Positions 2,023 to 46,967 are shown, numbered from the stretch's first letter. The stretch: DNA of 64,000 nucleotides from Patescibacteria group bacterium (GCA_028712155.1 JAQTQO010000001.1:1501-65500), one strand, 5' to 3'. Translations and numbers: made by a program. Notes: generated by a model from the letters alone, not told the origin.

Positions 2023-2033
2023 AATGCAGCAAT

Positions 2034-3215
2034 ATGAAAATTGCCCTCGTTCACGACCATCTCACGCAGGTCGGCGGCGCCGAACACGTGTTGCGGGTGT
2101 TGCAGGAGATTTGGCCCGAAGCGCCGACGTACACGCTGGTGTACAACGATGAGCGCGTCGCCGGTGCGGTGGATGGCCGCCGGATCCGTCCGTCGTTTCT
2201 CCAGCGTTTTCCCGGCGCCCGGCGCCATCCGCAGTGGTACCTGCCACTGATGCCGACGGCCACCGAAAGCTACGACCTGCGGGATTACGACGTCGTGCTC
2301 TCGTCGTGCTCGGCATTCGCGAAGGGTGTGATCACGCGGTCCAATACCGTACATATCTGCTACTGCCATACGCCGACCCGGTATTTGTGGTCCGACACGC
2401 AGCAGTACGTCGCCGACCTGCCGTACCCGCGGCTGATGAAGTGGTCAATCCGGCGGCTGATGACGCGGTTGCGTACCTGGGATCAGCTGGCGGCGCAGCG
2501 GGTGGATTTGTTCATCGCGAATTCGCGCAATGTCTCCGAACGCATTACCAAGTACTATCGGCGCGACTCCATCATCATTCCGCCTCCGGTGGAAATCGAA
2601 CGTTTCCGGCCGCAGCCGGTCGTTGATCGTTACTTTTTGACCGGCGGAAGAATCGTGCCGTACAAGCGGTTTGATCTCGTGGTCTCCGCCTTCAATCAGC
2701 TTGGCATTCCGCTCAAGGTATTTGGCGACGGGCCGACGCTGCCAAAACTGCGTGCGATGGCGAAACCGAATATCGAATTTCTCGGAAGAATTGATGCGGA
2801 GGCGCTGGCGACGCACTACGCACGAGCGCAAGCCTTTATCCAGCCGCAGATCGAAGACTTCGGCATCACGGCGATCGAAGCGATGGCGTCCGGCCGTCCG
2901 GTCATCGCGTTTGCCGCCGGCGGGGCGGTCGAGACGGTCGTGCCGGGAGTGACCGGCATGCTGTTTGACGAGCAATCGTGGGAATGTTTGGCCGATGCGG
3001 TGATCCGTTTTCAACCAAAAGACTTTTCGTCGGAACGCATCCGCAAACACGCCGAGCAGTTCAGCACCGCGCAGTTTCGGACGAGCATGCAAACGCTGGT
3101 TGAAACGGAGTGGCGAAAACTGCAGGAGCGGCGCTGGAACGTGCACCAGGTGACCGATGCGGTCCGGGAAGGCCGTGCGGTGTTCACGCTGCCGCCGGAG
3201 AAATCGTCCGAATAA
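2034..3215 (+). CDS. Glycosyltransferase family 4 (GT1-fold)
   Basis: Start reassigned to ATG 2034 (MKIALVHDHL…), which is in frame with ORF 1956 and just after the upstream stop at 2020-2022. The C-terminal part has a GT4 retaining-GT signature (…EDFGITAIEAMASGRPVIA…). Confidence 0.75.
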   Translation: MKIALVHDHLTQVGGAEHVLRVLQEIWPEAPTYTLVYNDERVAGAVDGRRIRPSFLQRFPGARRHPQWYLPLMPTATESYDLRDYDVVLSSCSAFAKGVITRSNTVHICYCHTPTRYLWSDTQQYVADLPYPRLMKWSIRRLMTRLRTWDQLAAQRVDLFIANSRNVSERITKYYRRDSIIIPPPVEIERFRPQPVVDRYFLTGGRIVPYKRFDLVVSAFNQLGIPLKVFGDGPTLPKLRAMAKPNIEFLGRIDAEALATHYARAQAFIQPQIEDFGITAIEAMASGRPVIAFAAGGAVETVVPGVTGMLFDEQSWECLADAVIRFQPKDFSSERIRKHAEQFSTAQFRTSMQTLVETEWRKLQERRWNVHQVTDAVREGRAVFTLPPEKSSE

Positions 3216-3264
3216 AAAAGAGGGCCGGCACGGCGCCAGCCCAATCGGAAGAACGGGAGGAAGG

Positions 3265-3882
3265 TTACGGAGTTTTGAAATCCGGGTTTCGGATGATTTT
3301 CCGAAGGAACGGCGCGGCCCGCAAGTAGTCGCACAGGGAGTAGATGGTGAAGCCGGCCATGATCACGATGAGGGTGGCGAAGAGCCAGAAAGGAAGGCCG
3401 ATGGTCCAGTCGGTGAGCCACCAGTCGGTGTTGACGGAATTCACTTTGATCCGGGAAATGAGCACGAACCCGAGGGTATAGGAACCGATGGTACGGAGTT
3501 TTCCCGACGAACGGGCAGAGATGGTCTGGTGGTGGTGGGCCGCCACGCTGCGCAGCCAGGAGACCGTGGTGTCACGGAAGATCATGATGAACGTCAGTAC
3601 GGGGAGCAGTGAGGTCGCCAGCACGTGGATGAGCGGAACGTAGATCGCCGCTACCAGGATCTTATCCGCCAGCGGATCGAATTCCTTGCCCAGATCGGTG
3701 ATCTGTCCGAAGCGGCTCCGGGCAAGCCGCCCGTCTACCATGTCGGTGACGGCGACCACGGCGAGACCGATGAGGGCGGCGAACTTGATCCGGTGGTCGT
3801 ACGGCGCCAACAGGATGAGGAAAAAGAGCGGGACGGCACCAATGATCCGCAGGAGGGTGACGAAATTTGCGCGGTTTGCCAT
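3265..3882 (-). CDS. CDP-alcohol phosphatidyltransferase family protein
   Basis: The D-x2-DG-x2-AR…G-x3-D-x3-D motif is present (DMVDGRLARSRFGQITDLGKEFDPLADK) in a 205-aa polytopic membrane protein embedded among the GT genes. Confidence 0.75.
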   Translation of the reverse strand: MANRANFVTLLRIIGAVPLFFLILLAPYDHRIKFAALIGLAVVAVTDMVDGRLARSRFGQITDLGKEFDPLADKILVAAIYVPLIHVLATSLLPVLTFIMIFRDTTVSWLRSVAAHHHQTISARSSGKLRTIGSYTLGFVLISRIKVNSVNTDWWLTDWTIGLPFWLFATLIVIMAGFTIYSLCDYLRAAPFLRKIIRNPDFKTP

Positions 3883-3977
3883 GGGTACCTCGAGGGACTA
3901 GGGTTCGGAAACGGGGAAAAGTCAAAGACCAGCTTCGGTATTGTAATCGGTAATAGAGGGAACGGTCAAATGCGTCT

Positions 3978-5105
3978 ATGAATATCGGCGTTGACATTCG
4001 ATGCCTGGCGGAACGGTACCGCACCGGGGTGGGGGAATACACCTGGAATCTCCTGCGCCGGCTGCCCCGGTTGCTCCCCGGTGAGCGTTTTACGTATTTT
4101 TGCAACGCCGCCAAACCGGTGCGCTTGCCGGAACTGGCGGCCGAAAACGTCCAGATCCGGCTGGGCCGGATTCCCAGCAAGGCGTTCAATATTTCCGTGC
4201 GGCTGTTGGGTCGGCCGCAGCTCGATGTGCTCTGCGGTGCCGATGCGGTGTTTCTGCCGAGTCTGCAGTCGGTCGCGCTCCGCCGTTCGGCCAAGCTGAT
4301 CGTCACGATTCATGATTTATCATTCGAGCGCTACCCGGAATTTTTTTCACCCAAGGCGCGGTTGTGGCACCGGTTGGTAAACCCGCGCTGGCTGTGCCAA
4401 CGGGCGGATGCGATTTTTGCGACGTCGGAACACACGCGCATGGAGGTGGTGGAATACTATCGTATCCCGCCGGAACGCATCACGGTCACGCCGCTGGGCG
4501 TTGACGAGAGCTTCTTTTCGCGCGCGGATAGCGCAGGCCGGGCGGCGGTGCGGCAGCGCTACCAATTACCACAACGATACGTCCTGACGGTCGGTAATCT
4601 TGAACCGCGGAAAAACATTGCGTCCGTGATCGCCGCGTTCGACCGCCTGCAGCCGGATGCGGATCTCGTGATTGTCGGGCGGGCAGTCTGGAACGTCGAG
4701 ACGCTCCGCCGTCTGGCGCAGAAAAGCCGGCTGCGGCAGCGCATGCATTTTCTCGGGTACGTGGATGCCGCGGACCGGCCGACGCTGTACCAGATGGCCG
4801 CCGCATTCGTGTACCCCTCCTACTATGAAGGGTTCGGGTTGCCGGCGCTGGAAGCGATGTCAAGCGGAGTACCGGTCGTCGCCGCAGGCACGACGTCGCT
4901 GCCCGAGGTCGTCGGGGACGGCGGGCTACTGATCGATCCGTACGATGTCAACGATCTGGCAGCGGCGTTGGAAACGATTTTGCAGGATACGCGCGTGCGC
5001 TCCCGCTGCATCGAGCGGGGATTGGCGCGTGCCCGACAATTCACGTGGGAGGAAACGGCCCGGCGTTCCGCCCGCGCGATCTCTAAATTAACCGCAAAGC
5101 ATTAG
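3978..5105 (+). CDS. Glycosyltransferase family 4
   Basis: The 375-aa protein has the …YEGFGLPALEAMSSGVPVVA… signature. Confidence 0.75.
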   Translation: MNIGVDIRCLAERYRTGVGEYTWNLLRRLPRLLPGERFTYFCNAAKPVRLPELAAENVQIRLGRIPSKAFNISVRLLGRPQLDVLCGADAVFLPSLQSVALRRSAKLIVTIHDLSFERYPEFFSPKARLWHRLVNPRWLCQRADAIFATSEHTRMEVVEYYRIPPERITVTPLGVDESFFSRADSAGRAAVRQRYQLPQRYVLTVGNLEPRKNIASVIAAFDRLQPDADLVIVGRAVWNVETLRRLAQKSRLRQRMHFLGYVDAADRPTLYQMAAAFVYPSYYEGFGLPALEAMSSGVPVVAAGTTSLPEVVGDGGLLIDPYDVNDLAAALETILQDTRVRSRCIERGLARARQFTWEETARRSARAISKLTAKH

Positions 5106-5118
5106 CGATTGCCGGCGT

Positions 5119-6243
5119 ATGCGTATCGGAATTGACGCGCGAATGTACGGACCCCGGGTGACGGGCATTGGAAATTACGTCCAGCATCTGACGGACGCAA
5201 TGTTTGCCCGTGACCGTGATGCGGAATTTGTGCTTTTTCTCAATCCTGACGTTTATCAGACGTTCGTTCCGTCCAACCGCCGGGTTACGGCGGTGGCGAC
5301 CGGGGCACCGTGGTATAGCTGGCAGGAGCAACTGACGCTGCCGTGGAAGCTGCGGCGTCAGCACTGCGATCTGGTACACTTTCCCAACTTCAATCATCCG
5401 TTAGGGTATCGCGGAAAATTCGTCGTCACCATTCACGATTTGACGCCGCTGCAATTCCCGGGGCCAAACCAGGTCCGGTCAAAAGTGCGCCGGGCAGCGT
5501 ACCTGGCCGTCCTGCGTTCGGCACTGCGGCGGGCACAAGCAATCATCGCCGTTTCTCAGCATACCGCCGATGAAATCAAGGCATATTACCCCGGTTGTGC
5601 GCAGCGTTTAGCGGTAATTTATCCGGGGTTATCCCCAGGTTTCTTGAAAAACGAAAATTGTGGTATAATAAATCCCCAGTTAGAACGGTGGGGGATTAGA
5701 AAAGGCTACATCTTCTACGCCGGTGTTTGGCGTGACCATAAAAATATCCCCAATCTTTTGCGGGCATTCAAGATCGTCCGGGATAAGTACGGGTTTGCCG
5801 GCCAATTGGTCGTGGGCGGTGATCAGCGCAATGCCGATCCGCAGATCGCGCGGGAACTAAAGAATTTTTCACCGCGCGAGGTCGTTGCACCCGGATTTAT
5901 TTTAGCGCAGGACTTGCCGGATTTTTACCGGGCCGCGGCGGTGACGGTGATCCCTTCGTTCAAAGAAGGGTTCGGATTGGTGGCGATCGAATCGCTGGCG
6001 TGCAAAACGCCGGTGGCCGCCTCCCAAACGACGAGTGTTCCCGAAGTTTTGGGCCGGTGCGGGCGGTACTTTCCACCCGATGAACCGGCGGTAATGGCCG
6101 AGCGCATTTGGGAGCTGCTGCAGCCAGACGCGCGCGCTGATGTACTGCAGCAGGCACCCGGTTTGGTGCAACGCTTTCAGTGGTCTCGGGCAGCCGGCGA
6201 AACGCTTTCCCTCTATCAGCGCGCAGTAAATTCAACGGCATGA
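5119..6243 (+). CDS. Glycosyltransferase family 4
   Basis: The 374-aa protein has the …KEGFGLVAIESLACKTPVAAS… signature. Confidence 0.75.
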   Translation: MRIGIDARMYGPRVTGIGNYVQHLTDAMFARDRDAEFVLFLNPDVYQTFVPSNRRVTAVATGAPWYSWQEQLTLPWKLRRQHCDLVHFPNFNHPLGYRGKFVVTIHDLTPLQFPGPNQVRSKVRRAAYLAVLRSALRRAQAIIAVSQHTADEIKAYYPGCAQRLAVIYPGLSPGFLKNENCGIINPQLERWGIRKGYIFYAGVWRDHKNIPNLLRAFKIVRDKYGFAGQLVVGGDQRNADPQIARELKNFSPREVVAPGFILAQDLPDFYRAAAVTVIPSFKEGFGLVAIESLACKTPVAASQTTSVPEVLGRCGRYFPPDEPAVMAERIWELLQPDARADVLQQAPGLVQRFQWSRAAGETLSLYQRAVNSTA

Positions 6244-9200
6244 AAAGGAAAAGAAAAAAATTGAAAACGATCCGGGTCCGGAAGCCCCCGGTGACGCACC
6301 GGCGCAAGCTGCAGAGGCGGGCGCAGCGCGGGAAGCGTAAACCGGCCCGCCGACGGATGCTGTCTGTCCGTCACGCGGTTTCTGCGGCCGTGCCTACAGA
6401 ACGGCATCCGGAGAGCGCGGTGCCGCAGCTGTCTGCGGAGTCATTGCCGATACTGGCATCAGTAGCCGACACACCGAATGTTGCGGCGTCGCAGACCGCG
6501 CAGCCATTCGAACCGGTGACGCCGGCGGTTGAGGCGGTGTCCGCGCCAGCGACCGTCGCCGAGACGGTCGCAACGGATCAAACCGACACCTCAAGTCCGG
6601 CAGTTTCCGACGCGCGGCCGCCGGAAATTAATTCTGCTTTCGCCATTGCACCGGTGACGCCGGATGAAGATTCTAATCCCACGATGGATATTCAGGACAC
6701 AACCGATTTTGACGAACACTCGGATAATCGGACTCCGACTCCGGCGCACGTGGTGTGGGTCAGCGAGATTAATGATGTATTGGAAACTCCGCCTGACGCC
6801 CTGCCGATCGTACCGTCGGAACCGGAAAATAGTGATGTCGCACCCGCAGCGCTCACCACGGTTGGAGTAACCCCGCAGCCCTTGTCCGATGACGACGCTT
6901 CCGTAGCGGAAGTGCGCCCCGCGATTTTGGAAGAACCGGAAATTCCATTGCACACCGTTGTACCGCCACAGGTCACAGAGATCACTGCGCCCGATCTGTT
7001 CGATGCGGCGGGCAATCTTACCCTGCCGCCAAAGATACAGACCCGTGCAGCGTTTACGCCAAACCTTGCGGTGACGCCGGTTCCTCCGGAGCCGACAACA
7101 GAAACTCCGGCGGTAGCGTCGGATCCTTTTGCGCCGGAGGCGGCCGAAACATTGTCCCGCATGCCGCCGGTTCAGCGGAAAAAGCGCCTGGATGGCGTCA
7201 CGGGTTTATCGGTCACCGGTGCCGTACGTTTGGCCTTCTGGCCGGTGAAATTTATTTACTGGCCATGCCGGCTGTTCGCATTACGGCGGCAGCGACGCGC
7301 CTATGAGCGGCAGTATGCAAAGCAGGCGGCGCCGATAGTGGAAACTCCGCTGTCCAACCTCGCGAGGCTGGCGCTGCAGTTCATCGTCGTTTGCGTCGTA
7401 CTGCTTCTCCCGCTGCAGATCGCCGTGTATTTGCAGGATTTGAACGACGCGCAAGACCACCTGCTGGCGCAATCGGGCATGGCGATCGGGGAATTGCGGC
7501 TAGGTCGAGATGAACTCAAGGCCTTGCGGCTGATGTCCGCCGCGGAGCATTTCCAGCGCGCGCAAGACAGTTTTTTGGCCGCCAATAAGGAGTACCGGCG
7601 GTTGAATTTTTTCACCAAAGCGATTTTGAAAACAACGCCGCATGGCCAACGGGCCCTGACCGCGGGTTTGTCCCTCCTGACGGCCGGCGAAAGTTTGGCA
7701 TCGGTCGGCAGTGAATTTTCCACCCGCGCGGCCACGGTGACGCGCGACGGCGTCGGCGAAAACTTGCCGGAGGTGCTGAACATGCTGAATGATTACACCG
7801 ACTCCATGATGGGGTTGCTGCCGAAAGTGGCGCAGGCCCGAACGGCATTGGATCGGCTCGACCTGACGCACGATCCGCTGGGCAATCGCGAGGGGTTTCT
7901 GACTGCCGCCAATGCGCTGCCGGAGCTGGAGGAGACGCTCAAAGATTCGACGGCGATTTCGCGTTCGATCTTACAATTGCTGGGCAAGGGTCAGTGGCGG
8001 CGGTATCTCGTGCTGTTTGAAAATAACGCCGAGCTGCGTGCCACCGGAGGATTTGTCGGCAGTTTTGCCCTGATGGATGTGCAGGATGGCAAGATCATCA
8101 ATCTCGAGGTGCCGGGCGGGGGAACCTATGATCTGCAGGGGCGTTTAATGGCCCTGGTGAATTCACCCGCACCATTGCATCTGGTGAACCCGCGGTGGGA
8201 GATGCAGGATGCAAATTGGTGGCCGGATTTTCCGACCAGCGCGAAAAAAACGGCATGGTTTCTCGAACAATCCCGCGGCGGCAGCGTGGACGGGGTGATT
8301 GCGCTCACCAACACGCTGGTCGAGCGGATTTTAGCCGTCACGGGGCCGATCGAATTGCCGTCCTACGGGCGGGTCATCAGCGCGGAAAATTTTGTGACGG
8401 AAACGCAAAACCTGGTGGAGATCGACTACGACCGGACCGAAAACCGGCCGAAACAGTTCTTGGCGGACCTCGCACCGCGATTGATCGAACGCATGTTGGA
8501 ACTCGACCCCGTGAAACAGCAGGCACTTTTGACGGTGCTCTACGAGGCGATCCGGGAAAAGCACCTCATGATGTACAGCGCTGATCCGCAAACGCAGGAA
8601 ATTCTGGCGTCGCTGGACTGGGCCGGTCAGCAGCAGCCCGTAGGACTGAGCGATTACCTGATGGTGGTGACGACCAACGTCCTCGGCGGAAAGTCCGACC
8701 GCGTAGTGGAAACCAATCTCCGCCATGCCGTCACCGTCGGTGAGGACGGGAAAATGACCGTGAGCCTGATGATCACCAAAACGCACCGCGGGCAGGCCGA
8801 TGATCCGTTCACCGGGCTGCCGAATCGGAGTTACCTGCGCGTGTATGTGCCGGCCGGCAGCACGCTGATTTCCGCGACCGGTTTCGCCCCGCCTGACCCG
8901 TCATTAGAGAAGGCACCTGACGGCGTTTTCACCGACGACGCGGATCTGCTGGCGATCGAAGGGCAGCACGAAATCGACGCTGCGAGCGGAGTTGAAATCT
9001 ATGCGGAGCTTGGCAAGACCGTGTTTGCGCACTGGCTGACCGTCGCTCCCGGCGAGCAGCGATCGGCGACCCTGACCTACCAACTCCCGTTCACCCTCGA
9101 TGAGGCCAACGGCAGCTACACGTTGCTCGCGCAAAAACAGGCCGGTACCGCCGGTGATGAGCTGCTCGCGACCCTGCATTTTCCGGTCACCAACCAGGTC

Positions 9201-9344
9201 GCGCGGGCGTATCCTCAAATCGGTGACGAGCGGATGCAGCAGCTGGGCAATGTGATCCAATTTCACGATCGGTTGACGACGGACAAATTTTACGGTATCG
9301 TTTTTACCCCGGCGGGAGCGGCCGCGGATAACCGCGCGCCGTAG
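6240..9344 (+). CDS. Large envelope protein with a DUF4012-like C-terminal region; basic N-terminus, long acidic/Pro/Thr-rich disordered segment, and a single TM
   Basis: Start set at ATG 6240, which overlaps the upstream TGA (ATGA), giving MKRKRKKLK…. The TM is around residues 370-395. The C-terminal region has …LFENNAELRATGGFVGSFALMD…, typical of DUF4012 proteins found in cell-wall loci. Confidence 0.6.
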   Translation: MKRKRKKLKTIRVRKPPVTHRRKLQRRAQRGKRKPARRRMLSVRHAVSAAVPTERHPESAVPQLSAESLPILASVADTPNVAASQTAQPFEPVTPAVEAVSAPATVAETVATDQTDTSSPAVSDARPPEINSAFAIAPVTPDEDSNPTMDIQDTTDFDEHSDNRTPTPAHVVWVSEINDVLETPPDALPIVPSEPENSDVAPAALTTVGVTPQPLSDDDASVAEVRPAILEEPEIPLHTVVPPQVTEITAPDLFDAAGNLTLPPKIQTRAAFTPNLAVTPVPPEPTTETPAVASDPFAPEAAETLSRMPPVQRKKRLDGVTGLSVTGAVRLAFWPVKFIYWPCRLFALRRQRRAYERQYAKQAAPIVETPLSNLARLALQFIVVCVVLLLPLQIAVYLQDLNDAQDHLLAQSGMAIGELRLGRDELKALRLMSAAEHFQRAQDSFLAANKEYRRLNFFTKAILKTTPHGQRALTAGLSLLTAGESLASVGSEFSTRAATVTRDGVGENLPEVLNMLNDYTDSMMGLLPKVAQARTALDRLDLTHDPLGNREGFLTAANALPELEETLKDSTAISRSILQLLGKGQWRRYLVLFENNAELRATGGFVGSFALMDVQDGKIINLEVPGGGTYDLQGRLMALVNSPAPLHLVNPRWEMQDANWWPDFPTSAKKTAWFLEQSRGGSVDGVIALTNTLVERILAVTGPIELPSYGRVISAENFVTETQNLVEIDYDRTENRPKQFLADLAPRLIERMLELDPVKQQALLTVLYEAIREKHLMMYSADPQTQEILASLDWAGQQQPVGLSDYLMVVTTNVLGGKSDRVVETNLRHAVTVGEDGKMTVSLMITKTHRGQADDPFTGLPNRSYLRVYVPAGSTLISATGFAPPDPSLEKAPDGVFTDDADLLAIEGQHEIDAASGVEIYAELGKTVFAHWLTVAPGEQRSATLTYQLPFTLDEANGSYTLLAQKQAGTAGDELLATLHFPVTNQVARAYPQIGDERMQQLGNVIQFHDRLTTDKFYGIVFTPAGAAADNRAP

Positions 9345-9391
9345 CCAATCCGGCCTGGCCGGTATCCGGTCCGGCGAGGTTTAGGTATACT

Positions 9392-11314
9392 ATGGAACCA
9401 AAACGGCTTCGACAATTGCAACAGCAGTCCGGCGTTGATTCCGAGCTGCTGAAAATTTACCGCGATTACAACGGTCAGGTACCGGATATTTCGCGTCTGC
9501 AAATCCACCGGACCAATTGGACCGCCCGGATTTTGGGGTGGGCGCTGGCACTCGGCGTGGTGGGGGGATTGGGGTGGTGGGCGTGGGCGTCGTTTATCGG
9601 CGGGAATGGCACCGCGGCGTCGAGCCTGCGGGTGGCCGTGACCGCGCCGCCCGAGCTGGCGTCCGGCGAAGCGGTGACCTACGCGATCAGCTACGAGAAC
9701 GTCGACCGGGTGGCGCTGCAGGGCGTTGAATTGAATGTGCGGTATCCCGAAGGGTTTACGTTCGTCAGTGCGGAGCCGACTCCGTCGAATGCATATCACA
9801 ATACCTGGCAGCTCGGGCAATTGCTGTCCGGTCGCAGCGGACAAGTCCGCATCACCGGGAAGGTGGTGGGAAACATCGGGAGCATCGTGACCGTGACCGG
9901 GACCGCGACCTACCGGCCGCAGAATTTCAACGAATCGTTCAAGGCCAAGAATGATTTTACCTCCAGCAGCCAGATCACCACTTCGCTTTTGACGCTGGAA
10001 ATTGCCGGGCCGGGGCAGGCGGTGGCCGATCGCGAAGTGACGTACACGGTGAACTACGTGAACGCGTCCGATAATCCGTTAAGCGACGTGCTCATCGTGG
10101 CGACGTACCCCGCCGGATTTACCTTCCGCAAGGCGACCCCGGGAATCAAGCCGCCGTCCATCACTGTCGCGTATCCGTCAAACGTTGGCGGCAAGCCGCC
10201 GGATGCGACGTGGGTGATCCCGACGATCGAACCGAAGGCGAAAGGGCAGATAGTTCTTGTCGGTGGATTTCCGACCGCACAGCAGGTCAACGGGAACGGC
10301 GGGCGTGAACTGGTCGTACGCGGGGGGTTTGTCGATGAAACCGGGACTTTTTCGCTCCAGCAGGAGCAGCGGTTCACGACCGCGCTGCTGCAGCCCAACC
10401 TGCAGCTTTCCCTCATCATCAACGGTCAGACCACCGACAAACCGGTGAATTTCGGCGATACGCTTGACTTCCGGGTGGTCTACAAAAATTTGGGGAAGGA
10501 GAAGCTGCAGGATGTCCGGATTACCGTTGAAATCGCGTCGAAGCTGATCGATTGGAACACGTTGACCGACAAGAATCTCGGCCGGGTCAGCGGCAACTCG
10601 ATCCAGTGGGATCAGCTGGGCATCGCGGGACTGGCGGAAATTCCGCCGCTCGGTGAAGGAACCATTGATTTTTCCGTTCAACTGAAACCGCAGCAATCCG
10701 TTGAGGCCGGGGTCGAAAATTTCAGTACCGTCAGCACGGCAAAAGCGGCGATCGCTTCGGTGGATAATTTAGCTTCCGACCAGGTGGTGGCGGCCACGCC
10801 GATCACCAATACCGTCAATACGTCGCTGACGCTGAAAGCCCAGGGACGGTATTTCAACGACGATAATCTGGCCGTCGGTTCCGGGCCGTTGCCCCCGGTG
10901 GTCGGTGAAAAAACCTCGTTCCGCATTTATTGGTCGCTGCAAAACAGTTTGCATGAGGCGAAGCGCGTGACGGTGACCACCAAGCTGTCCGCCGACGTCG
11001 TATGGGAGAATAAGCAGATCGCCTCGACCGGGCAGCTGATCTATAATCCGGATGACCGCACGGTGACGTGGGCGATCACGTCGATGCCGACCAAGGCGAG
11101 CGAGGAAGATTATAACGCATGGTTTGACATATCGGTCACCCCGGCCCAGGACGAGGTGGGAAAGCTTTTGCTGCTGACCAGTGAAACGAATCTTGCGGCG
11201 ACCGACGCCGTCACCAACGCCCCGATCGACGGCATGGTCCGAAGCATCACGTCAAATCTCGAGGACGACCCGTCCGTCGCGGGCCGCGGCTTGGTCGTTG
11301 AGCTCGGGCAGTAA
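9392..11314 (+). CDS. Cell-surface protein with DUF11-type conserved repeat domains, N-terminal TM anchor
   Basis: The 640-aa protein contains repeated units such as …VTYAISYENVDRVALQGVELNVRYPEGFTFVSAEP… and …VTYTVNYVNASDNPLSDVLIVATYPAGFTF…. An N-terminal hydrophobic segment (ILGWALALGVVGGLGWWAWASF) is present. Confidence 0.65.
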   Translation: MEPKRLRQLQQQSGVDSELLKIYRDYNGQVPDISRLQIHRTNWTARILGWALALGVVGGLGWWAWASFIGGNGTAASSLRVAVTAPPELASGEAVTYAISYENVDRVALQGVELNVRYPEGFTFVSAEPTPSNAYHNTWQLGQLLSGRSGQVRITGKVVGNIGSIVTVTGTATYRPQNFNESFKAKNDFTSSSQITTSLLTLEIAGPGQAVADREVTYTVNYVNASDNPLSDVLIVATYPAGFTFRKATPGIKPPSITVAYPSNVGGKPPDATWVIPTIEPKAKGQIVLVGGFPTAQQVNGNGGRELVVRGGFVDETGTFSLQQEQRFTTALLQPNLQLSLIINGQTTDKPVNFGDTLDFRVVYKNLGKEKLQDVRITVEIASKLIDWNTLTDKNLGRVSGNSIQWDQLGIAGLAEIPPLGEGTIDFSVQLKPQQSVEAGVENFSTVSTAKAAIASVDNLASDQVVAATPITNTVNTSLTLKAQGRYFNDDNLAVGSGPLPPVVGEKTSFRIYWSLQNSLHEAKRVTVTTKLSADVVWENKQIASTGQLIYNPDDRTVTWAITSMPTKASEEDYNAWFDISVTPAQDEVGKLLLLTSETNLAATDAVTNAPIDGMVRSITSNLEDDPSVAGRGLVVELGQ

Positions 11315-12553: not shown

Positions 12554-12576
12554 AACCGGTGCGAAGCCGGTTTTTT
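12554..12576 (+). terminator. Intrinsic terminator downstream of tgt
   Basis: AACCGG-TGCGAAG-CCGGTT hairpin followed by TTTTTT. Confidence 0.5.
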
Positions 12577-12623
12577 CGCATCGAGCGGATTTTTCGTACC
12601 GAATACAAAACGGTCGAATAATA

Positions 12624-12632
12624 TGGTATAAT
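12624..12632 (+). promoter_or_regulatory. Extended -10 promoter (TGgTATAAT) about 9 nt upstream of the ATG at 12642; near-leaderless transcript
   Basis: TGGTATAAT at 12624-12632; the start codon at 12642 leaves essentially no leader. Confidence 0.45.
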
Positions 12633-12641
12633 TCACTCATT

Positions 12642-13040
12642 ATGACCCGCAGCGTTGTCCTCAGCTCACTCAAGTATTTTTCGCTTGACCTCGTTGGAAA
12701 AGTGCTGTATTGGCCCCTGTGGTGGTATACCGTCGGCTTTCAAAAGCTCATGACGATCACGGCGGGGAATGTTTTGGAAGAAGAGCACCAGCTCGGCGTC
12801 GTGTTGTGGTGGAAGAATCTTTTCGTGCCGATGTACGGCCAGTACGATTGGCAGGGGCGGATTATCAGTTTCTTCATGCGGCTGGTTATCGGCATCGCGC
12901 GCATCGCCCTCCTGGTGGTGTGGTTTGCGTTTTCCTTGACGGTTATTGTCGCGTGGGTACTGGTGCTTCCGTTGGCGGCCTATTTTCTGTGGATTAATGT
13001 TCTCTACGCGTTTGATATCGCCTGGTGGCCATACGCGTAG
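12642..13040 (+). CDS. Small Trp-rich integral membrane protein (hypothetical), co-operonic with the downstream AAA+ gene
   Basis: The 132-aa protein has several hydrophobic segments, and the 13044 gene starts 4 nt after its stop. Confidence 0.5.
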   Translation: MTRSVVLSSLKYFSLDLVGKVLYWPLWWYTVGFQKLMTITAGNVLEEEHQLGVVLWWKNLFVPMYGQYDWQGRIISFFMRLVIGIARIALLVVWFAFSLTVIVAWVLVLPLAAYFLWINVLYAFDIAWWPYA

Positions 13041-13043
13041 GCA

Positions 13044-15824
13044 GTGAGGGGTATGGGGGAGAAGCATGCGAAACTTGTGACGCGATTTGCGTGCCCGACA
13101 TGCCGCGGGATAGGCGTGCAGGGGGCGCAGCGCTGCCGTACGTGCGGCGGTCGCGGAACCATCGGGCGGCAGGGCGACCTGATGTTGTATTGGGGGCGTC
13201 CGATCGACTACCGGCATCTGGCGCAACGGCATGTCATCGCCATCGCCCAGTACACGGTGGTGACGATTCTGCTCGGGTTTGCCGCGTTGGGCGTCGGGGG
13301 GCTGCTCTGGCAGCTGATTCTGCTTGACCAGTACGGCGTACCGTTGTGGCGTTTTTGGGAGCAGCAGAATATTTGGATGCTGACGTTTTGGTGGTCATTG
13401 GTGGTGGACAGCTACCTGGTGTATCACTTCTCACAGGAGTACGCCAAAATTCAGCACATCCCGCGGCGAGCCCGGCGGGGAGTCACCGGCGCGGCCGCAC
13501 CGCCGACGTCCTGGGAAACGGCCCTGCAGGTCCGGCGCGGACAGACCGTGAATCTCTCCGACCTCTACACGGCGGAAGCGATCGCGGCGGTTGAAAAGTC
13601 GTGGGAGTTTGCCGCATCATCGCGCCACCACGCGGTGGCGCCTTTGCACCTGCTGGTTGCGCTACTGCAGTTTCCCGCCATGACGGAGATGTTTGTGCGG
13701 TTGGGCGCTCCGTTTACGCGTTTGAATCGGCTGGTGACGGGTGCGTTGCCGCGCTACGCCGTTCCGACCGGAAACGCCCTTACGTTCGACGCCGAATATT
13801 TTGAGGCGCTGTTTTCCGCGTACGAGGAGGCCTGGAGCCGCCAGCAGAAGAAAGTCGACCTTTCGGAACTGCTGGTTGCCTGCGTGACCACCTCCGAGGT
13901 GGTGCGCGACGTTCTCTATGACGTCAAGATCGACACGGACGCGATTCATAACGTCGCCGCATGGTTCCGCGTGCGGCGTGAACAGCGCGCGCGCTACCAT
14001 CATCTCCGCAGCCGCACGTCGTACCGGCCCCGGCGCACGACCATGGACCGCGCGATGACCGCGGTGGCGACGCCGGCCCTCGACAGCTTCAGCCAGGACT
14101 TGACGCAGTTGGCGCGGGCCGGGTACTTAGAGCCGTGCCTTGGCCGCGATCATGAAGTCACCGAAATATTCCGCATTTTTTCGGCCGGCGGCCGGCAGAA
14201 CATCGTGCTGGTCGGCAATCCCGGCATCGGCAAGCGCACCATCGTGAACGGCGTAGCGCAGCTGATGGTCGCCGAGGATGTGCCGAAGTTCATGCAGGAC
14301 AAACGTTTGGTGAGTCTGAGCGTGGCGCGGCTTATTTCCGGGGTGACGGCGAGCGTTGCCGAAGAGCGCTTGCTTCACTGTCTCAACGAAGCCGCGCGTT
14401 CCCGCAATATCATTCTCTTTATCAACGACGTGTCAAAGATGGTGGGGATTTCTCCGGGCGGCAGCGCATCGCTGGATTTGGCCGGGGCCCTTGCCCAGGC
14501 GCTCACCCAGACGGGCCTGCGCGCAATTACCACCGCCTTGCCGACCGACTATAGCCGGTACGTCGAAAATCACCTCCTTGGCCAGGTGCTGGAAAAGATG
14601 AATATTGAAGAACCCGAAGGTAACGACGCCATTCAAATTCTCGAAGCGAAAGTCGGCGCCATCGAGGCGAATTATCACGTATACTTCACGTACGAAGCGA
14701 TCGCGCAGGCAGTCAAATTGAGCGGCCGGTACCTGCACGACCGGTTTTTGCCCGAAAAGGCGATCGAAGTGCTGGATGAAAGCGCCGTGCGCACGCTCAA
14801 CGAAAAAGGGCGCGACAGCTCCGTCACCGGCCAGGATGTCGCCCTGACGGTGTCGGAAAAAACCGGCATCCCATTGACCGAAGTCACCCAGCAGGAATCC
14901 GCCAAGCTGCTGAATCTCGAGCAAGAAATTCACCAGCGCATGGTGGACCAGGAGGAGGCGGTGAAGCTGGTGTCGGCGGCCATCCGGCGGGCGCGGGCCG
15001 AGCTGCGCGACGTGCGGCGGCCGATCGTCAACCTGCTGTTTTTGGGGCCGACCGGCGTGGGCAAGACCGAACTGGCAAAAATCGTCGCGTCGGTGTATTT
15101 CGGGCGGGCGAGCGAACTGATCCGGCTGGATATGTCGGAATACCAGGAGAAATCATCCGTGAACCGCCTCCTGGGGGCGCCCGCAGGTTTTGAAGGGCAC
15201 GGCGAGGGCGGCTATCTGACCGAAGCGGTGCGTCACCATCCGTTCGCCTTGCTGCTGCTGGATGAGATCGAAAAGGCGCATCCGGATATTCTGAATTTGT
15301 TTTTGCAGGTCATGGACGATGGCCGGCTGACGGATGCGGTCGGCCGGACGGTGGATTTTACCAATGTCATTTTGATCGCCACGTCAAACGCCTGTACGCC
15401 GACCATCCAGCGTTTGACGGCTGCAGGGGTCAGCGTGGCGGAGGTAAAAGCCAAATTGCTTTCCGGCGAATTACAGCAGCACTTCCGGCCGGAGTTTCTG
15501 AACCGCTTCGATAGCGTGGTGGTGTTCAAACCGCTGGGCATGCCCGAGGTGCAGAAAATCGCCCGATTGATGCTGCAGGAGGTGGGCAAGCGTTTACTGG
15601 AGAAAGGAGTTTCCCTGCAGCCGACGGATGCGGCAATTGACGAACTCGCCACCGCCGGGTATGATCCGGAGTTCGGGGCCCGGCCGTTGCGGCGCGTGAT
15701 TCAGGAGCGCGTGGACGATGCGATCGCGACAAAAATCCTCGGCGGTGAGCTGGAGCGCCGGGATACCATTATTCTGGACGTGGGCGGACGCGTGACGATC
15801 AAGAAGCCGGCACGCCGGGCATGA
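13044..15824 (+). CDS. Membrane-anchored double-AAA+ Clp-like ATPase with N-terminal DnaJ-type zinc finger (atypical ClpC/ClpB relative)
   Basis: The N-terminus has CPTCRGIG…CRTCGGRG (two CxxCxGxG repeats) followed by two TM helices and Clp_N-like repeats. D1 has a degenerate Walker A (GNPGIGKRT) and Walker B (LFINDV), while D2 is canonical (GPTGVGKT; [11 protein letters not shown]). No ClpB-type M-domain and no IGF/LGF ClpP loop were seen. Confidence 0.7.
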   Translation: MRGMGEKHAKLVTRFACPTCRGIGVQGAQRCRTCGGRGTIGRQGDLMLYWGRPIDYRHLAQRHVIAIAQYTVVTILLGFAALGVGGLLWQLILLDQYGVPLWRFWEQQNIWMLTFWWSLVVDSYLVYHFSQEYAKIQHIPRRARRGVTGAAAPPTSWETALQVRRGQTVNLSDLYTAEAIAAVEKSWEFAASSRHHAVAPLHLLVALLQFPAMTEMFVRLGAPFTRLNRLVTGALPRYAVPTGNALTFDAEYFEALFSAYEEAWSRQQKKVDLSELLVACVTTSEVVRDVLYDVKIDTDAIHNVAAWFRVRREQRARYHHLRSRTSYRPRRTTMDRAMTAVATPALDSFSQDLTQLARAGYLEPCLGRDHEVTEIFRIFSAGGRQNIVLVGNPGIGKRTIVNGVAQLMVAEDVPKFMQDKRLVSLSVARLISGVTASVAEERLLHCLNEAARSRNIILFINDVSKMVGISPGGSASLDLAGALAQALTQTGLRAITTALPTDYSRYVENHLLGQVLEKMNIEEPEGNDAIQILEAKVGAIEANYHVYFTYEAIAQAVKLSGRYLHDRFLPEKAIEVLDESAVRTLNEKGRDSSVTGQDVALTVSEKTGIPLTEVTQQESAKLLNLEQEIHQRMVDQEEAVKLVSAAIRRARAELRDVRRPIVNLLFLGPTGVGKTELAKIVASVYFGRASELIRLDMSEYQEKSSVNRLLGAPAGFEGHGEGGYLTEAVRHHPFALLLLDEIEKAHPDILNLFLQVMDDGRLTDAVGRTVDFTNVILIATSNACTPTIQRLTAAGVSVAEVKAKLLSGELQQHFRPEFLNRFDSVVVFKPLGMPEVQKIARLMLQEVGKRLLEKGVSLQPTDAAIDELATAGYDPEFGARPLRRVIQERVDDAIATKILGGELERRDTIILDVGGRVTIKKPARRA

Positions 15825-15858: not shown

Positions 15859-16908
15859 ATGTACGGAGACATGAATCGGATCCTGTTGTATTTCGGCGTA
15901 GTCATCATTTCGGCTGGAGTGGCGTGGCTCGGCACGCGGCTTTTGGTATACGTTGTTCCCGGCTGGCAGATTACGGATTCACCGAATGGAGAGCGCAAGC
16001 GTCACGCCCGGCCGGTTCCGTTGCTTGGAGGTGCGGCAGTGTGGGGGAGTGTCGTTCTGACCGCGGCGATGCTTTGCGGCCTTGGTTTTTTGCCCGAAGG
16101 GAAAGTCACGTGGTTCGTGCTTTTTGGCATGCTCGCCGGGAGTGCGATGCTAATGATCGGCGGATTTTTCGATGACCGTTTTCATTTGCCTCCTTCTGCG
16201 CAGATGATTGCTCCCGCCCTGGCAGCCGTAACGGCGATCATCAGCGGCGTCGGGTTCACTCTGATTACCAATCCGTTGGGCGGCGTGCTGCGCATTGCCG
16301 GGTGGGTTTCACCGATCCTGGCGTTTGCCTGGTTGCTTGGCATGATGTACACCACGAAATTTCTCGACGGCATTGACGGACTGGTCACGAGCCTGACGGC
16401 AATTGGAGCGTTGATAATTTTTGCGCTCAGCCTCCGGTGGGACGCTCCGTCGGTGAGTACCGCGTTGCTCGCGCTCGCGTTATGCGGAGCGTGCCTGGGG
16501 TTTCTGCCGTTCAACCTTACGCCGGCGAAAATTTTTTTGGGGGAAGGCGGGAGTGTGTTCACCGGTTACCTGCTGGGGTTACTCGCGATCGTGTCAGGGA
16601 GTAAAATCACTACCACGCTGCTGGTCATGGGCGTGCCGATACTTGATGTGGCCTGGGTCATAGCGGAACGGGCGTGGCATCGTACCCCGGTCACGCGCGG
16701 GGACCGCCGCCATCTCCATTTTCGATTACTGGAGCGCGGTTTGAGTACGCGGCAGGTGGTGCTGCTGCTGTCGGCAATTTCGGGGGCGTTTGGGGCAGTC
16801 GCGCTCATCGTTTCTCCCGCCGGAAAGGCGGTGGCGCTCGCGGCACTAGTTGTCGTGGTTATCGGACTGATGCAGTGGGCGCGCCAGGAAAATTTTCATC
16901 GAAGTTGA
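15859..16908 (+). CDS. Glycosyltransferase family 4 polyprenol-phosphate HexNAc-1-phosphate transferase (MraY/WecA/TagO family)
   Basis: A polytopic membrane protein with …MMYTTKFLDGIDGLVTSL…. Confidence 0.75.
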   Translation: MYGDMNRILLYFGVVIISAGVAWLGTRLLVYVVPGWQITDSPNGERKRHARPVPLLGGAAVWGSVVLTAAMLCGLGFLPEGKVTWFVLFGMLAGSAMLMIGGFFDDRFHLPPSAQMIAPALAAVTAIISGVGFTLITNPLGGVLRIAGWVSPILAFAWLLGMMYTTKFLDGIDGLVTSLTAIGALIIFALSLRWDAPSVSTALLALALCGACLGFLPFNLTPAKIFLGEGGSVFTGYLLGLLAIVSGSKITTTLLVMGVPILDVAWVIAERAWHRTPVTRGDRRHLHFRLLERGLSTRQVVLLLSAISGAFGAVALIVSPAGKAVALAALVVVVIGLMQWARQENFHRS

Positions 16909-44345: not shown

Positions 44346-46967
44346 TTGACTATGGATCCGTCGAAATTTACCTACAAAGTCCAAGAGGCGCTGCAGCGGA
44401 CCGTGCAGTTCACCACCGAGCTTGGACAGCAGCAAATTACCGTGCCCCACCTCCTGTACGTTCTGGTGGAGCAATCGGACAGCATTGTCCCGGCCGTGCT
44501 CAAAAAACTGGAGATTGACCTCGCGGCGCTCAAAGAGCGCCTGCTTGAAGCGGCCAAAAAAATGCCGACCGTGAACGGTCTGGTGGTGACGCCGTATCTG
44601 ACGACCGAATTCAACGTGGTATTAGGCCGGTGCGAACGCATCGCAAAATCATTGGGCGATGAATATGTCTCGACCGAACACCTGCTGCTCGGCATCACCG
44701 AAGTGAATTCCGAGGCGAAGACGATCCTGGGTGATTTTGGCGTGACGCATGAGCGCGTCATGAACGTATTGAAAGAGGTGCGGGGGAGCCACCGGGTCGT
44801 CGACATGGACCCCGAAAGCAAATACCAGGCGGTGCGCAAGTACGCCACGAATTTGAACGAACTGGCGCGTAACGGCAAGCTCGATCCGGTGATCGGACGC
44901 GACCGTGAGATCCGCCGGATCATGCAGGTGATTACGCGGAAAAAGAAGAATAATCCGGTGCTCATCGGCGAACCGGGTACCGGAAAGACCGCGATCGTGG
45001 AAGGGTTATCCCAGCGGATCGTCAAAGGTGACGTTCCCGAAAGCCTCAAAGATAAGGAAATTCTGAATCTGGATATCGGTTCGATTTTGGCCGGGTCGAA
45101 ATTCCGCGGTGAATTTGAAGACCGCTTGAAAGCGGTCCTGAAAGAGATCGAGGATGCGGAGGGCAAATTTATCCTGTTTGTCGACGAACTGCACGTCATC
45201 GTCGGCGCCGGCGGCGCGGAAGGTGCGATCGACGCGGCCAACCTTTTGAAACCGGCGTTGGCCCGCGGCAGCTTGCGGATGATCGGCGCCACGACGCTGA
45301 AGGAGTACCAACGTTACGTGGAAAAGGACGCCGCGCTCGAGCGGCGGTTCCAACCGGTTTTTGTCGGCGAACCGACCCTGGAGGATACCATCGCGATTTT
45401 GCGCGGGATCAAGGAAAAGTATGAACTGCACCATGGCATTAAAATCACCGATGGCGCGTTGATCGCGGCCGCCAAGTTATCCCAGCGCTACATTACCGAT
45501 CGGTTTTTACCCGACAAGGCGATTGATCTGGTGGATGAGGCGGCGTCGGGCTTGCGGTTGGTGATCGATTCGATGCCCGATGACCTGGATGTGTTGAAGC
45601 GCAAGATCATTCAGCTGAAAATTGAAAAAGAGGCGTTGAAAAAGGAGGGCGGAGCGTCGTCAAAGCCGCTGGCCGAGGTGAAGGCAAAACTCGCGAATAC
45701 TGAGGAGCAGGCACGGCAGATCGAGATTCACTGGCGGGCCGAGAAGGAACTCATTAACCAGATCAAGCAGGCGCGCGAGGATATCGATAAACTCAAGATG
45801 AAAGCCGAACGGTATGAGCGCCAGGGCGAACTTCAGCAGGTGGCGGAAATCAAGTACGCCGGGTTACCCGGACTGGAGAAAAAGATCACCGAACTCACGA
45901 GTAAGCTCAACCGGCTGCAAGCCGAACGACAGATCATCAAGGAAACCGTGACCGAAACGGATATCGCGGGCGTGGTTTCGCGCTGGACGGGAATTCCGGT
46001 GGACAAGATGCTGGAAAGCGAGTCGAAGAAACTTGCCCGCATGGAGGAAATGTTGCGGCGGCGCGTGGTCGGTCAGGACCAGGCGATCGCGGCAGTTTCC
46101 AACGCGGTCCGGCGGTCGCGCGCCGGGATCGCCGAAGAGTACCGGCCGATCGGCACGTTCCTGTTTCTCGGTCCCACGGGCGTCGGCAAAACGGAACTGG
46201 CGAAAGCCGTCGCGGAGTTTCTCTTCGATGACGAACGGGCGCTTGTTCGGGTTGATATGTCCGAATACATGGAACGGCACTCGGTGGCTAAAATTACCGG
46301 TTCACCGCCGGGGTACGTCGGTTACGAGGAAGGCGGACAGCTGACGGAGATCATCCGCCGACGGCCGTATGCGGTCATCCTGCTCGACGAAATCGAAAAA
46401 GCACACCCGGATGTGTTCAACTTGCTGCTGCAGATTCTTGACGAAGGTCGTTTGACCGATGCGAAAGGGCGCGTCGTGAATTTCAAAAACACCGTGGTCA
46501 TCATGACGTCAAATCTCGGATCGGACATCATTCACGAGTACGCGCTCGGCTTTACCACCGAACGCCGGTCCGCCGGCATCAATCAGCAGGAGATGGAAGA
46601 TCGCATCCAGGATATGTTGCGCCGGACGTTTAAACCGGAATTTCTCAACCGGCTGGATGCCAGTATCACATTCCATGCGCTCGGACATCGGGAGATCCGT
46701 CAGATTATCGATCTGCAGTTGCGGCAGGTCAGCGAACGCCTTGCCCAGCAGGGGATTACGGTCGGGTTTAGCGAGCGCCTGAAAGATTACCTGGCCAAGA
46801 AGGGTTTTGATCCGGCATTCGGCGCCCGGCCGCTCAAACGCCTGATCCAGCAAAAAATTCTTGACGAATTAGCGCTGGGAATCGTTGAGGGCCGGTTGAA
46901 GGAGGGCCAACATCTGACCGTCGATGAACGAAAAGGAAAAGTCGTTACCGCGCCGACAAAATCGTAA
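44346..46967 (+). CDS. clpB: Chaperone disaggregase ClpB
   Basis: The 873-aa protein has two AAA domains (GEPGTGKT; GPTGVGKT), a long coiled-coil M-domain, and no ClpP loop. Confidence 0.9.

Follow-up and report, generated by a model that had tools for sequence, protein, structure and literature searches.

We analysed a stretch of 64,000 nucleotides (nt), one strand, from a Patescibacteria group bacterium (GCA_028712155.1, JAQTQO010000001.1:1501-65500; hereafter the window). It carries a two-gene unit that encodes a small tryptophan-rich membrane protein, here called the partner, and a membrane-anchored ATPase of the Hsp100/Clp family (Table 1). The unit lies downstream of tgt, whose stop codon is at 12509. 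The partner open reading frame (ORF) comprises 132 amino acids (aa), 11 of which are tryptophan (8%), and its TAG is separated by 3 nt from the GTG at which a 926-aa ATPase would start. A first-pass annotation of the locus, made from the sequence alone, had put this start '4 nt after' the partner stop, which corresponds to the same three intervening nucleotides. The start codon of the ATPase is ambiguous between this GTG and an ATG 3 codons further on (13053). The latter has a GAGGGG stretch just 5' of it and is the start in the identical NCBI record (923 aa, 'AAA family ATPase [Patescibacteria group bacterium]').

Table 1. Features of the two-gene unit, its flanks and the comparison gene, with positions counted from the first nucleotide of the window.
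Feature	Position	Strand	Basis
Terminator candidate: GC-rich hairpin AACCGG..CCGGTT, then T run	12554..12580	+	Sequence read; after tgt stop
Extended -10 promoter TGgTATAAT, without usable -35	12624..12632	+	Sequence; 9 nt from its end to ATG 12642
Partner, Trp-rich membrane protein	12642..13040	+	ORF; homologue directly upstream of ATPase in 5/5 relatives
Hsp100/Clp-family ATPase, membrane-anchored	13044..15824	+	Pfam, NCBIfam, Protein Data Bank (PDB) sequence matches, AlphaFold2
Zinc ribbon, aa 17-38, CPTCRGIG-x6-CRTCGGRG	13092..13157	+	Motif; 4 Cys conserved
Transmembrane (TM) helix 1, ~aa 67-95	13242..13328	+	Family-mean Kyte-Doolittle peak 2.2-2.4; AlphaFold2 helix 56-97
TM helix 2, ~aa 110-130	13371..13433	+	Hydropathy peak 1.6; AlphaFold2 helix 110-135
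Clp_N-type N-domain, divergent, aa 176-325	13569..14018	+	ClpA model alignment; N-domain alignments
D1 AAA module, aa 346-590, degenerate; AAA_lid_9 kept	14079..14813	+	Pfam, alignments
D2 AAA module and D2-small, aa 641-915, catalytically complete	14964..15788	+	Pfam AAA_2, ClpB_D2-small, motifs
WecA-like polyprenyl-phosphate N-acetylhexosamine-1-phosphate (HexNAc-1-P) transferase (Glycos_transf_4, GT4)	15859..16908	+	Pfam 1.4e-28; 34 nt after ATPase
Canonical ClpB, 873 aa, comparison gene outside the operon	44346..46967	+	Pfam; TIGR03346 1219.8 bits vs cutoff 1232.1

By fold and domain order, the ATPase is a class I (two-ring) Hsp100/Clp protein. Pfam detected AAA_2 (5.6e-57), ClpB_D2-small (3.7e-24) and AAA_lid_9 (3.6e-15), and the best PDB sequence matches were ClpC and ClpB (E ~1e-140). 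An AlphaFold2 model based on a 105-sequence alignment reached a predicted local distance difference test score (pLDDT) of 91.1 and a predicted template modelling score (pTM) of 0.84, and was confident through the N-terminal region. Its D1-D2 body superimposed on ClpC and ClpB protomers in the hexamer state with template modelling scores (TM-scores) of 0.88-0.91 and root mean square deviations of 3.1-3.5 Å. The NCBIfam models of ClpB, ClpA, ClpK, ClpG and ClpV all aligned to the ATPase, each at about half of its own cutoff or less. Among them ClpB scored best (TIGR03346, 597.6 bits versus a cutoff of 1232.1), while ClpA (TIGR02639) gave 522.9 bits versus 993. With the two-ring architecture, these values bear out the earlier view that the protein is not a ClpA, ClpB, ClpC, ClpX or FtsH. 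No peptidase family was found among its Pfam matches, nor was the M41 architecture of FtsH, and PADLOC returned generic AAA_2-domain matches only (PDC-M37B, DolB).

To characterize the two AAA modules, we used E. coli ClpA, E. coli ClpB and the window's own ClpB as references. The D1 Walker A motif reads GNPGIGK-R versus GK-T in ClpA and ClpB, a Thr-to-Arg substitution without insertion, and the Walker B motif reads LFINDV versus LFIDE(I/L). The D1 pore loop is one residue shorter than the KYRG loop of ClpA and ClpB and has no aromatic residue, while LGQVL stands where ClpA and ClpB have the RR arginine fingers (ARRF). That is, the D1 motifs remained non-canonical on re-alignment, and the disruption extends from the Walker motifs, where it had first been noticed, to the pore loop and the arginine fingers. 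D2, in turn, has the same Walker A as ClpA and ClpB (GPTGVGKT), a matching Walker B (LLLDEIEK versus LLLDE(I/V)EK), sensor 1 (N782), the arginine finger (R768) and sensor 2 (GAR880). Its description as canonical held for these catalytic motifs but not for the pore loop, which is of full length and reads GFEG (Phe716) instead of GYVG. Alignments revealed no trace of an M-domain in the ATPase, neither the ~120-aa ClpB insert nor the ~60-aa ClpC insert. The ClpP-docking [LIV]G[FL] loop was likewise absent from D2, as annotated: TAAGVSV occupies the position of ClpA IGL and ClpC VGF, and the hydrophobic-G-[FL] pattern is not conserved there in relatives.

These features recur throughout the family, as motif statistics from 64 complete proteins, one per species, indicated. 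In D1, the Walker A lysine was kept in 52/64 species and GK[ST] in 14/64. Because the Walker B DE, the RR fingers and the pore-loop aromatic were each found in 0/64, D1 appears to be a pseudo-ATPase tier family-wide. For D2, the Walker A, Walker B, sensor 1 and sensor 2 motifs were each present in 64/64 species and Arg768 in 55/64; D2 thus has the signature expected of an ATPase under strong selection. Mean pairwise identity was 66% for the large D2 subdomain, 46-47% for D1, 28% for Clp_N and 22% for the TM hairpin.

The D2 pore loop is different. Only 11/64 species, and 21 of the 120 best homologues, have an aromatic residue at the position of the GYVG tyrosine, and in 52/64 species 4-6 residues of the loop are deleted. 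RLIG and GGxLTE, the invariant anchors on either side, are 6 residues apart in short loops versus 10 in ClpB, so that the deletion is evident whichever way the sequences are aligned. Even the five closest relatives, which are 59-72% identical to the ATPase, vary at the tyrosine position (P, F, P, S and F), while a Buchananbacteria-like clade has GY. The gripping aromatic of D2 therefore seems dispensable within the family, and its rare retention, together with its variation among near relatives, casts doubt on canonical threading.

N-terminal to these modules, the ATPase carries the two CxxCxGxG repeats noticed at first pass (CPTCRGIG and CRTCGGRG). All four cysteines are invariant among homologues carrying this module, which is present in 46/64 species and, being missing in 18/64, is not essential to the family. 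The usual spacing between the second and third cysteine is 10 residues, and the full xGxG of the second repeat occurs in only 21/46 species with the ribbon. The zinc finger was confirmed as a motif, while its proposed kinship to DnaJ would be a likeness at motif level only and its 'substrate-binding' role a conjecture. Pfam DnaJ_CXXCXGXG matched the ATPase with E = 0.0004-0.02 (15-21 bits, below the gathering cutoff of 32.7). The NCBIfam anti-TRAP model was also sub-threshold (E 0.0014). Two such repeats would form one 4-Cys zinc centre, in support of which we count these weak matches to PF00684 and anti-TRAP, but DnaJ has four repeats and two zinc centres, and all matches here were under the curated cutoffs. 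ClpE, of which a chain (29hb_b) was among the PDB sequence matches, likewise has an N-terminal zinc finger; the fingers of ClpE and ClpX are C4 modules that are not known to have the CxxCxGxG signature.

A conserved β-hairpin motif, LYWGR, follows the zinc ribbon and leads into TM1. Hydropathy, charge and the AlphaFold2 model agree on two TM helices, as had been annotated. Of the two, TM1 is clear, whereas the hydrophobicity of TM2 is moderate. The family motif FWxSxxxDxYLxYR lies in TM2, with conserved FW115-116, Asp122, Y127 and R128. Asp122 (13407-13409), in the middle of the helix, is Asp in 30/64 species and Asn in a further 8. The family-mean number of Lys and Arg (K+R) is 4.0 just before TM1, 1.1 in the TM1-TM2 loop and 9.0 after TM2. 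Hydropathy and this charge distribution together predict an N-in, loop-out, C-in topology, with both the zinc ribbon and the AAA body in the cytoplasm.

According to the alignment, the TM hairpin is located N-terminal to Clp_N and D1. The tentative Clp_N assignment comes from alignments: the NCBIfam ClpA model aligned from residue 181 of the ATPase, the N-domain could be aligned to those of ClpA and ClpB, and PF02861 is precomputed for most homologues. AlphaFold2 modelled the helical pattern of the region at high confidence. In the ATPase itself, Pfam Clp_N was sub-threshold (E 0.056, 14 bits versus a cutoff of 20.7). The linker between Clp_N and D1 (aa 335-344, 14046-14075) carries a family-specific motif, DRAMTA(V/I)xTP, with T339 and T343 invariant. 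Its mean pairwise identity (56%) is above that of D1, and it adjoins the sole low-confidence stretch of the model (332-336).

We then turned to the partner. Its family, clustered at 90% identity, numbers at least 2859 clusters, which consist solely of 'hypothetical' Patescibacteria proteins, and was found in at least 478 genomes in a scan of one genome per species. In a tblastn-based count, the ATPase was the next gene on the same strand after the partner in 75/77 loci with enough downstream DNA; the gap was at most 15 nt in 61/74 loci, and the genes overlapped in 29. This strict pairing points to an obligate partner. At the other two of the 77 loci (L024, L026), the ORF after the partner resembles Sua5/YrdC (…GGVIIYPTDTAYAL).

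AlphaFold2 modelled the partner (95 sequences, pLDDT 90.9) as a long hairpin of helices 5-51 and 70-128, joined by an invariant segment, KNLFxPM(Y/F)GQYDxxGRIISFxxR. Hydrophobicity is highest in the C-terminal half of helix 2, with which the N-terminal half of helix 1, containing WPLWWY, would pair. Mean K+R is 8.1 on the loop side versus 1.5 and 0.1 at the termini. The loop is thus predicted to be cytoplasmic, on the same side as the zinc ribbon, Clp_N and D1 of the ATPase. Arg80, which is invariant, and Arg87, which is nearly so (12879-12902), lie at the membrane boundary and, with Asp122 of the ATPase, are candidates for an intramembrane contact. A fold search of the PDB yielded no solved structure resembling the partner (best E 2.6), and Pfam, NCBIfam and PADLOC assigned it to no family. 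When 95 members were scanned singly, DUF4873 was sub-threshold in 21/95 (best E 0.0017), a match we treat as unverified.

The two genes form an operon. The candidate hairpin after tgt is likely a terminator that separates the unit from tgt; its stem is palindromic, and the hairpin listing scored it on the minus strand. The extended -10 element follows, and neither a promoter nor a terminator was found between the partner and ATPase genes in the window. With the close gene spacing, this supports the cotranscription from an extended -10 promoter that had been suggested. TGNTATAAT occurs 3 times in the window versus 0.61 by chance. In 39/78 species loci, the 60 nt 5' of the partner gene contain a perfect TGnTATAAT, versus a background expectation of 0.006 per locus, and in 28 of these 39 the element ends 6-12 nt ahead of the partner start codon. 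The recurrence of the element so close to the start indicates that the operon messenger RNA (mRNA) is typically leaderless or near-leaderless, and the window conforms to this. T-rich runs often precede the element in related loci, which we attribute to the terminator of the preceding gene. Leaderless transcripts in Patescibacteria were not the subject of any paper that our search of a limited collection turned up. In the 34-nt gap after the ATPase stop no terminator was detected. A sigma-70-like site (TTGACG-17-TATGAT, 15637-15665 (+), 10/12 matches) lies in the 3' end of the ATPase gene, ~190 nt before the GT4 start, and may be an internal promoter for the genes downstream of the ATPase.

To delimit the family, we inspected the 120 best homologues. 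They are ~870-960 aa long, with a query coverage of 89-100% that reaches 94% or more in all but two of the full-length proteins; the exception is P0077, a 703-aa fragment truncated at the N-terminus. Their hosts are Parcubacteria, Buchananbacteria, Komeilibacteria, Magasanikbacteria, Kerfeldbacteria and similar lineages. A profile of the N-terminal 170 residues retrieved 1147 representative clusters (50% identity) at E <= 1e-3 among 1.84 billion proteins. Apart from the variants described below, these matches were ~900 aa long or fragments. The ATPase hence belongs to a large Patescibacteria family that combines a zinc ribbon with LYWG, a TM hairpin, Clp_N, a dead D1 and a live D2 with a partner encoded upstream. 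Many carriers are titled 'uncultured Gammaproteobacteria' (L013, L018, L027, L032, L033, L085 and others, which are GTDB species-representative metagenome-assembled genomes), among them a closed 1.0-Mb chromosome, OZ246408.1, with the operon. We regard these titles as placeholders or errors, since content and size are patescibacterial. A longer variant of ~1230 aa has ~300 extra residues and no zinc ribbon (the 1234-aa ORF of L018 and the 1231-aa P0290).

The profile also revealed a sister form of ~590-630 aa that is 22-26% identical to the ATPase and aligns to its residues ~10-617 (P0274, P0280, P0282, P0284, P0289, P0293, P0301, P0302, P0319, P0326 and L091 401-2221). Its members have the zinc ribbon, TM hairpin, Clp_N and degenerate D1. 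D2 is absent, and they end with '...PYTKILK' soon after the D1-D2 junction. In L091, the sole contig available for this form, the stop codon is genuine, a WecA-like GT4 gene comes next and Pfam finds Clp_N only; a partner gene was not found upstream on this contig. Thus, the N-terminal module and the dead D1 can persist without any ATPase.

The surroundings of the operon point in one direction. In NCBIfam, the WecA model outscored the MraY model for GT4, both below their cutoffs. Of the 56 species loci that extend far enough, 35 (at least 63%) have GT4 downstream of the ATPase, as do 4/5 relatives; in the window, DUF192 and then L21 lie beyond it. Upstream of tgt, 622-11314 (+) encodes a Bac_transf sugar transferase, three GT1 glycosyltransferases, a DUF4012 protein (1054 aa) and a DUF11/CLIPPER surface protein (640 aa), and this envelope-glycan block recurs in two relatives (L001 and L002). 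The setting is therefore one of envelope biogenesis, which we treat as a lead and not as evidence. We also considered GT4 as the MraY of a dcw-cluster. This was unsupported: the WecA model scores higher, and MraZ or RsmH neighbours occur in only 7-8/80 loci (L007, for instance, has mraZ, rsmH and an ftsL-like gene upstream). An anti-phage defence system was rejected as well, since no PADLOC system model covers both genes of the operon and the housekeeping synteny also speaks against it.

The window encodes a canonical ClpB outside the operon, with an M-domain, all D1 and D2 motifs and an intact GYVG. The presence of this intact ClpB implies that the membrane-anchored ATPase is a specialised paralogue, distinct from the housekeeping disaggregase. 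The window ClpB has an 8-9-residue insertion with 'ALGF' at the position of the ClpP loop of ClpA and ClpC, which E. coli ClpB lacks, and on this basis may be a ClpB that naturally bears a loop of the ClpP-docking type. Two further genes of the window were noted. SecD (35402-37096 (+)), followed by SecF (37116-38018), carries a PPIC-type peptidyl-prolyl isomerase (rotamase) domain inserted at aa 150-239. The product of 40850-42727 (+) is a TrwB/VirD4-like type IV coupling-protein ATPase that also matches HerA/DUF87 and has a C-terminal treble-clef zinc finger (zf_Tbcl_2).

We next compared the ATPase with known systems. It shares with ClpB/Hsp104 the order of N-domain (a putative Clp_N here), D1, D2 and D2-small, the lack of a ClpP loop and a D2 that is 40-45% identical with its catalytic motifs kept. 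However, unlike ClpB, it lacks the M-domain as well as the D1 Walker B glutamate, arginine fingers and pore tyrosine, its D2 pore tyrosine is unconserved, and it is membrane-anchored with a zinc ribbon and a dedicated membrane partner, at about half the TIGR03346 cutoff. With ClpA it shares two AAA rings and the absence of a long M-domain, but it differs from ClpA and ClpC in the missing [LIV]G[FL] loop, the dead D1 and the membrane anchor. FtsH, which has two N-terminal TM helices, and Msp1/ATAD1 are alike in that an N-terminal TM anchor sets the substrate-entry face of the ring at the membrane. They are, though, single-ring AAA proteins of the classical clade with conserved aromatic pore loops, and FtsH has a protease domain, whereas the ATPase is a two-tier Hsp100 without protease and with degenerate pore loops. 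No sequence relationship to FtsH or Msp1 was found past the AAA+ fold.

A conceptual precedent comes from eukaryotes. Torsins are relatives of the Hsp100 D2 without aromatic pore loops, act at membranes and depend on the TM partners LAP1 and LULL1. They illustrate how a membrane Hsp100 derivative with an obligate partner might work without threading, and we do not claim homology. In contrast to the family described here, whose D2 mostly keeps its arginine finger, Torsins have a single AAA module without an arginine finger of its own and reside in the lumen of the endoplasmic reticulum, and their partner is an AAA-like activator instead of a plain helical hairpin. In NSF (D2) and in p97 and Pex1-Pex6 (D1), one ring keeps its P-loop, lacks catalytic residues and aids assembly, while the other is the motor. 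The division into one structural and one motor ring is similar here, but those proteins belong to another AAA clade, are soluble and retain pore-loop aromatics in the active ring.

Taken together, we tentatively favour the view that the ATPase is a dedicated, partner-assisted, membrane-proximal remodeller, which would be powered by D2 alone and act on specific membrane or envelope clients with neither protease nor Hsp70 coupling. It would form a ClpB-like double ring whose N-terminal face (zinc ribbon, Clp_N and D1) lies against the membrane and whose D2 points toward the cytoplasm. D1 would serve assembly and docking and bind nucleotide at most, leaving D2 as the sole motor. The M-domain is the DnaK-coupling element of ClpB; since both this domain and the ClpP loop are absent, coupling to DnaK or to a protease is not expected. 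The invariant cytoplasmic loop of the partner may attach to the N-terminal face, acting as a fixed adaptor or as a receptor for clients, which would be specific proteins of the membrane or of envelope biogenesis and not bulk aggregates. If the pore-loop aromatic is dispensable, force transmission would be non-canonical, by weak-grip or short-stroke pulling or by rigid-body remodelling, and not by processive threading. Several points weigh against this remodeller. That 53/64 species have no aromatic in the D2 pore loop speaks against any pulling mechanism. The moderate hydrophobicity of TM2 bears on the topology, since the zinc ribbon would be extracellular if TM2 did not span the membrane. The D2-less sister family may mean that the N-terminal module has a motor-independent function, and given the strong synteny in Patescibacteria the envelope context may be phylogenetic inertia. 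Finally, the hexamer, the binding of the partner and the clients are steps that we infer.

The first-pass annotation had suggested a dedicated unfoldase for membrane-protein extraction or quality control. In its general form, D2 would thread misfolded membrane proteins out of the bilayer in the manner of FtsH or Msp1, though with no protease. This fits the predicted position of the ring entry face at the membrane, the catalytically complete D2 and the apparently retained Clp_N, and it is conceivable for the ATPase itself, which keeps Phe716 in a full-length loop, as well as for the GY clade. Across the family, however, the gripping aromatic is mostly missing and the loop mostly shortened, the closest relatives vary, and the tyrosine position thus escapes the selection that acts on it in all threading Hsp100 proteins studied. 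Moreover, D1 offers no pore-loop aromatic, no protease or refolding partner that could take over an extracted chain was found (28 of ~53 ORFs of the window were scanned), the strict association with a single small protein makes a dedicated role more likely than a general one, and the intact ClpB of the window counters a general quality-control role in place of ClpB. We therefore consider a general unfoldase unlikely. A machine that does not thread at all seems to us similarly improbable. Here, D2 hydrolysis would move 12 TM helices and the partner hairpins, thereby forming or gating a membrane assembly for export, insertion or flipping tied to the adjacent lipid-linked glycan pathway, or else disassembling partner oligomers. 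The pore loops, degenerate in both rings across the family, are consistent with this, as are the conserved polar and aromatic residues of TM2, Arg80 and Arg87 of the partner at the membrane boundary, and the WecA-like GT4, a conserved neighbour also beside the D2-less sister family, in surroundings rich in envelope-glycan genes. Yet the case is built purely on context and conservation, the synteny could be inherited, the partner has no channel-like fold match, and 12-24 short helices with an outer loop of ~14 residues make no obvious conduit.

Two further explanations have less in their favour. In one, the ATPase would be a scaffold or pseudo-enzyme whose N-terminal module and D1 organise a membrane complex, with D2 as a nucleotide-dependent assembly switch. 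The ~600-aa sister family, which keeps the N-terminal module and the genomic position without D2, would suit a scaffold, and so would the pseudo-ATPase D1 found everywhere. But D2 is the best-conserved domain, and its catalytic residues, present in every species, speak for selection on hydrolysis and not on mere binding, which makes this explanation quite improbable. In the other, the protein would be an ordinary ClpC or ClpA paralogue with an odd N-terminus caused by gene calling or assembly. Databases do label homologues 'ATP-dependent Clp protease ATP-binding subunit (ClpC)', but the relatives so annotated carry the TM segments, and length and sequence of the N-terminal module are conserved across hundreds of independent assemblies. 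With NCBIfam scores at about half the ClpA and ClpB cutoffs, no ClpP loop, no active D1 and a confident AlphaFold2 model of the N-terminus, such an artefact is hardly credible. Labels such as 'ATP-dependent Clp protease ATP-binding subunit' or 'ClpC' suggest that the protein works with ClpP, for which the sequence gives no support.

Textbooks present Hsp100 proteins as the model case of pore-loop threading, and for the study of AAA+ mechanisms the family offers a natural experiment on a Clp ring without pore loops. In the literature searched, a limited collection, we found no description of a membrane-anchored zinc-ribbon Clp in Patescibacteria; within it, this is the first bacterial Hsp100 found to be integrally membrane-anchored with an obligate membrane partner. 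Patescibacteria (CPR) are ultra-small and mostly uncultured, with tiny genomes and envelope-dependent epibiotic lives. The operon is a conserved two-gene unit in these bacteria, probably part of their core, and is located among envelope-biogenesis genes. It is unlikely, but would be of particular consequence, that the family is a Patescibacteria-wide Hsp100 derivative without any threading, in which a dead D1 tier and a catalytically intact D2 tier devoid of pore loops use ATP to move a ring of TM hairpins and partners as a previously unknown AAA+-driven membrane machine. If this is true, the machine may serve the export or insertion of envelope polymers or proteins in bacteria that are short of canonical envelope systems.

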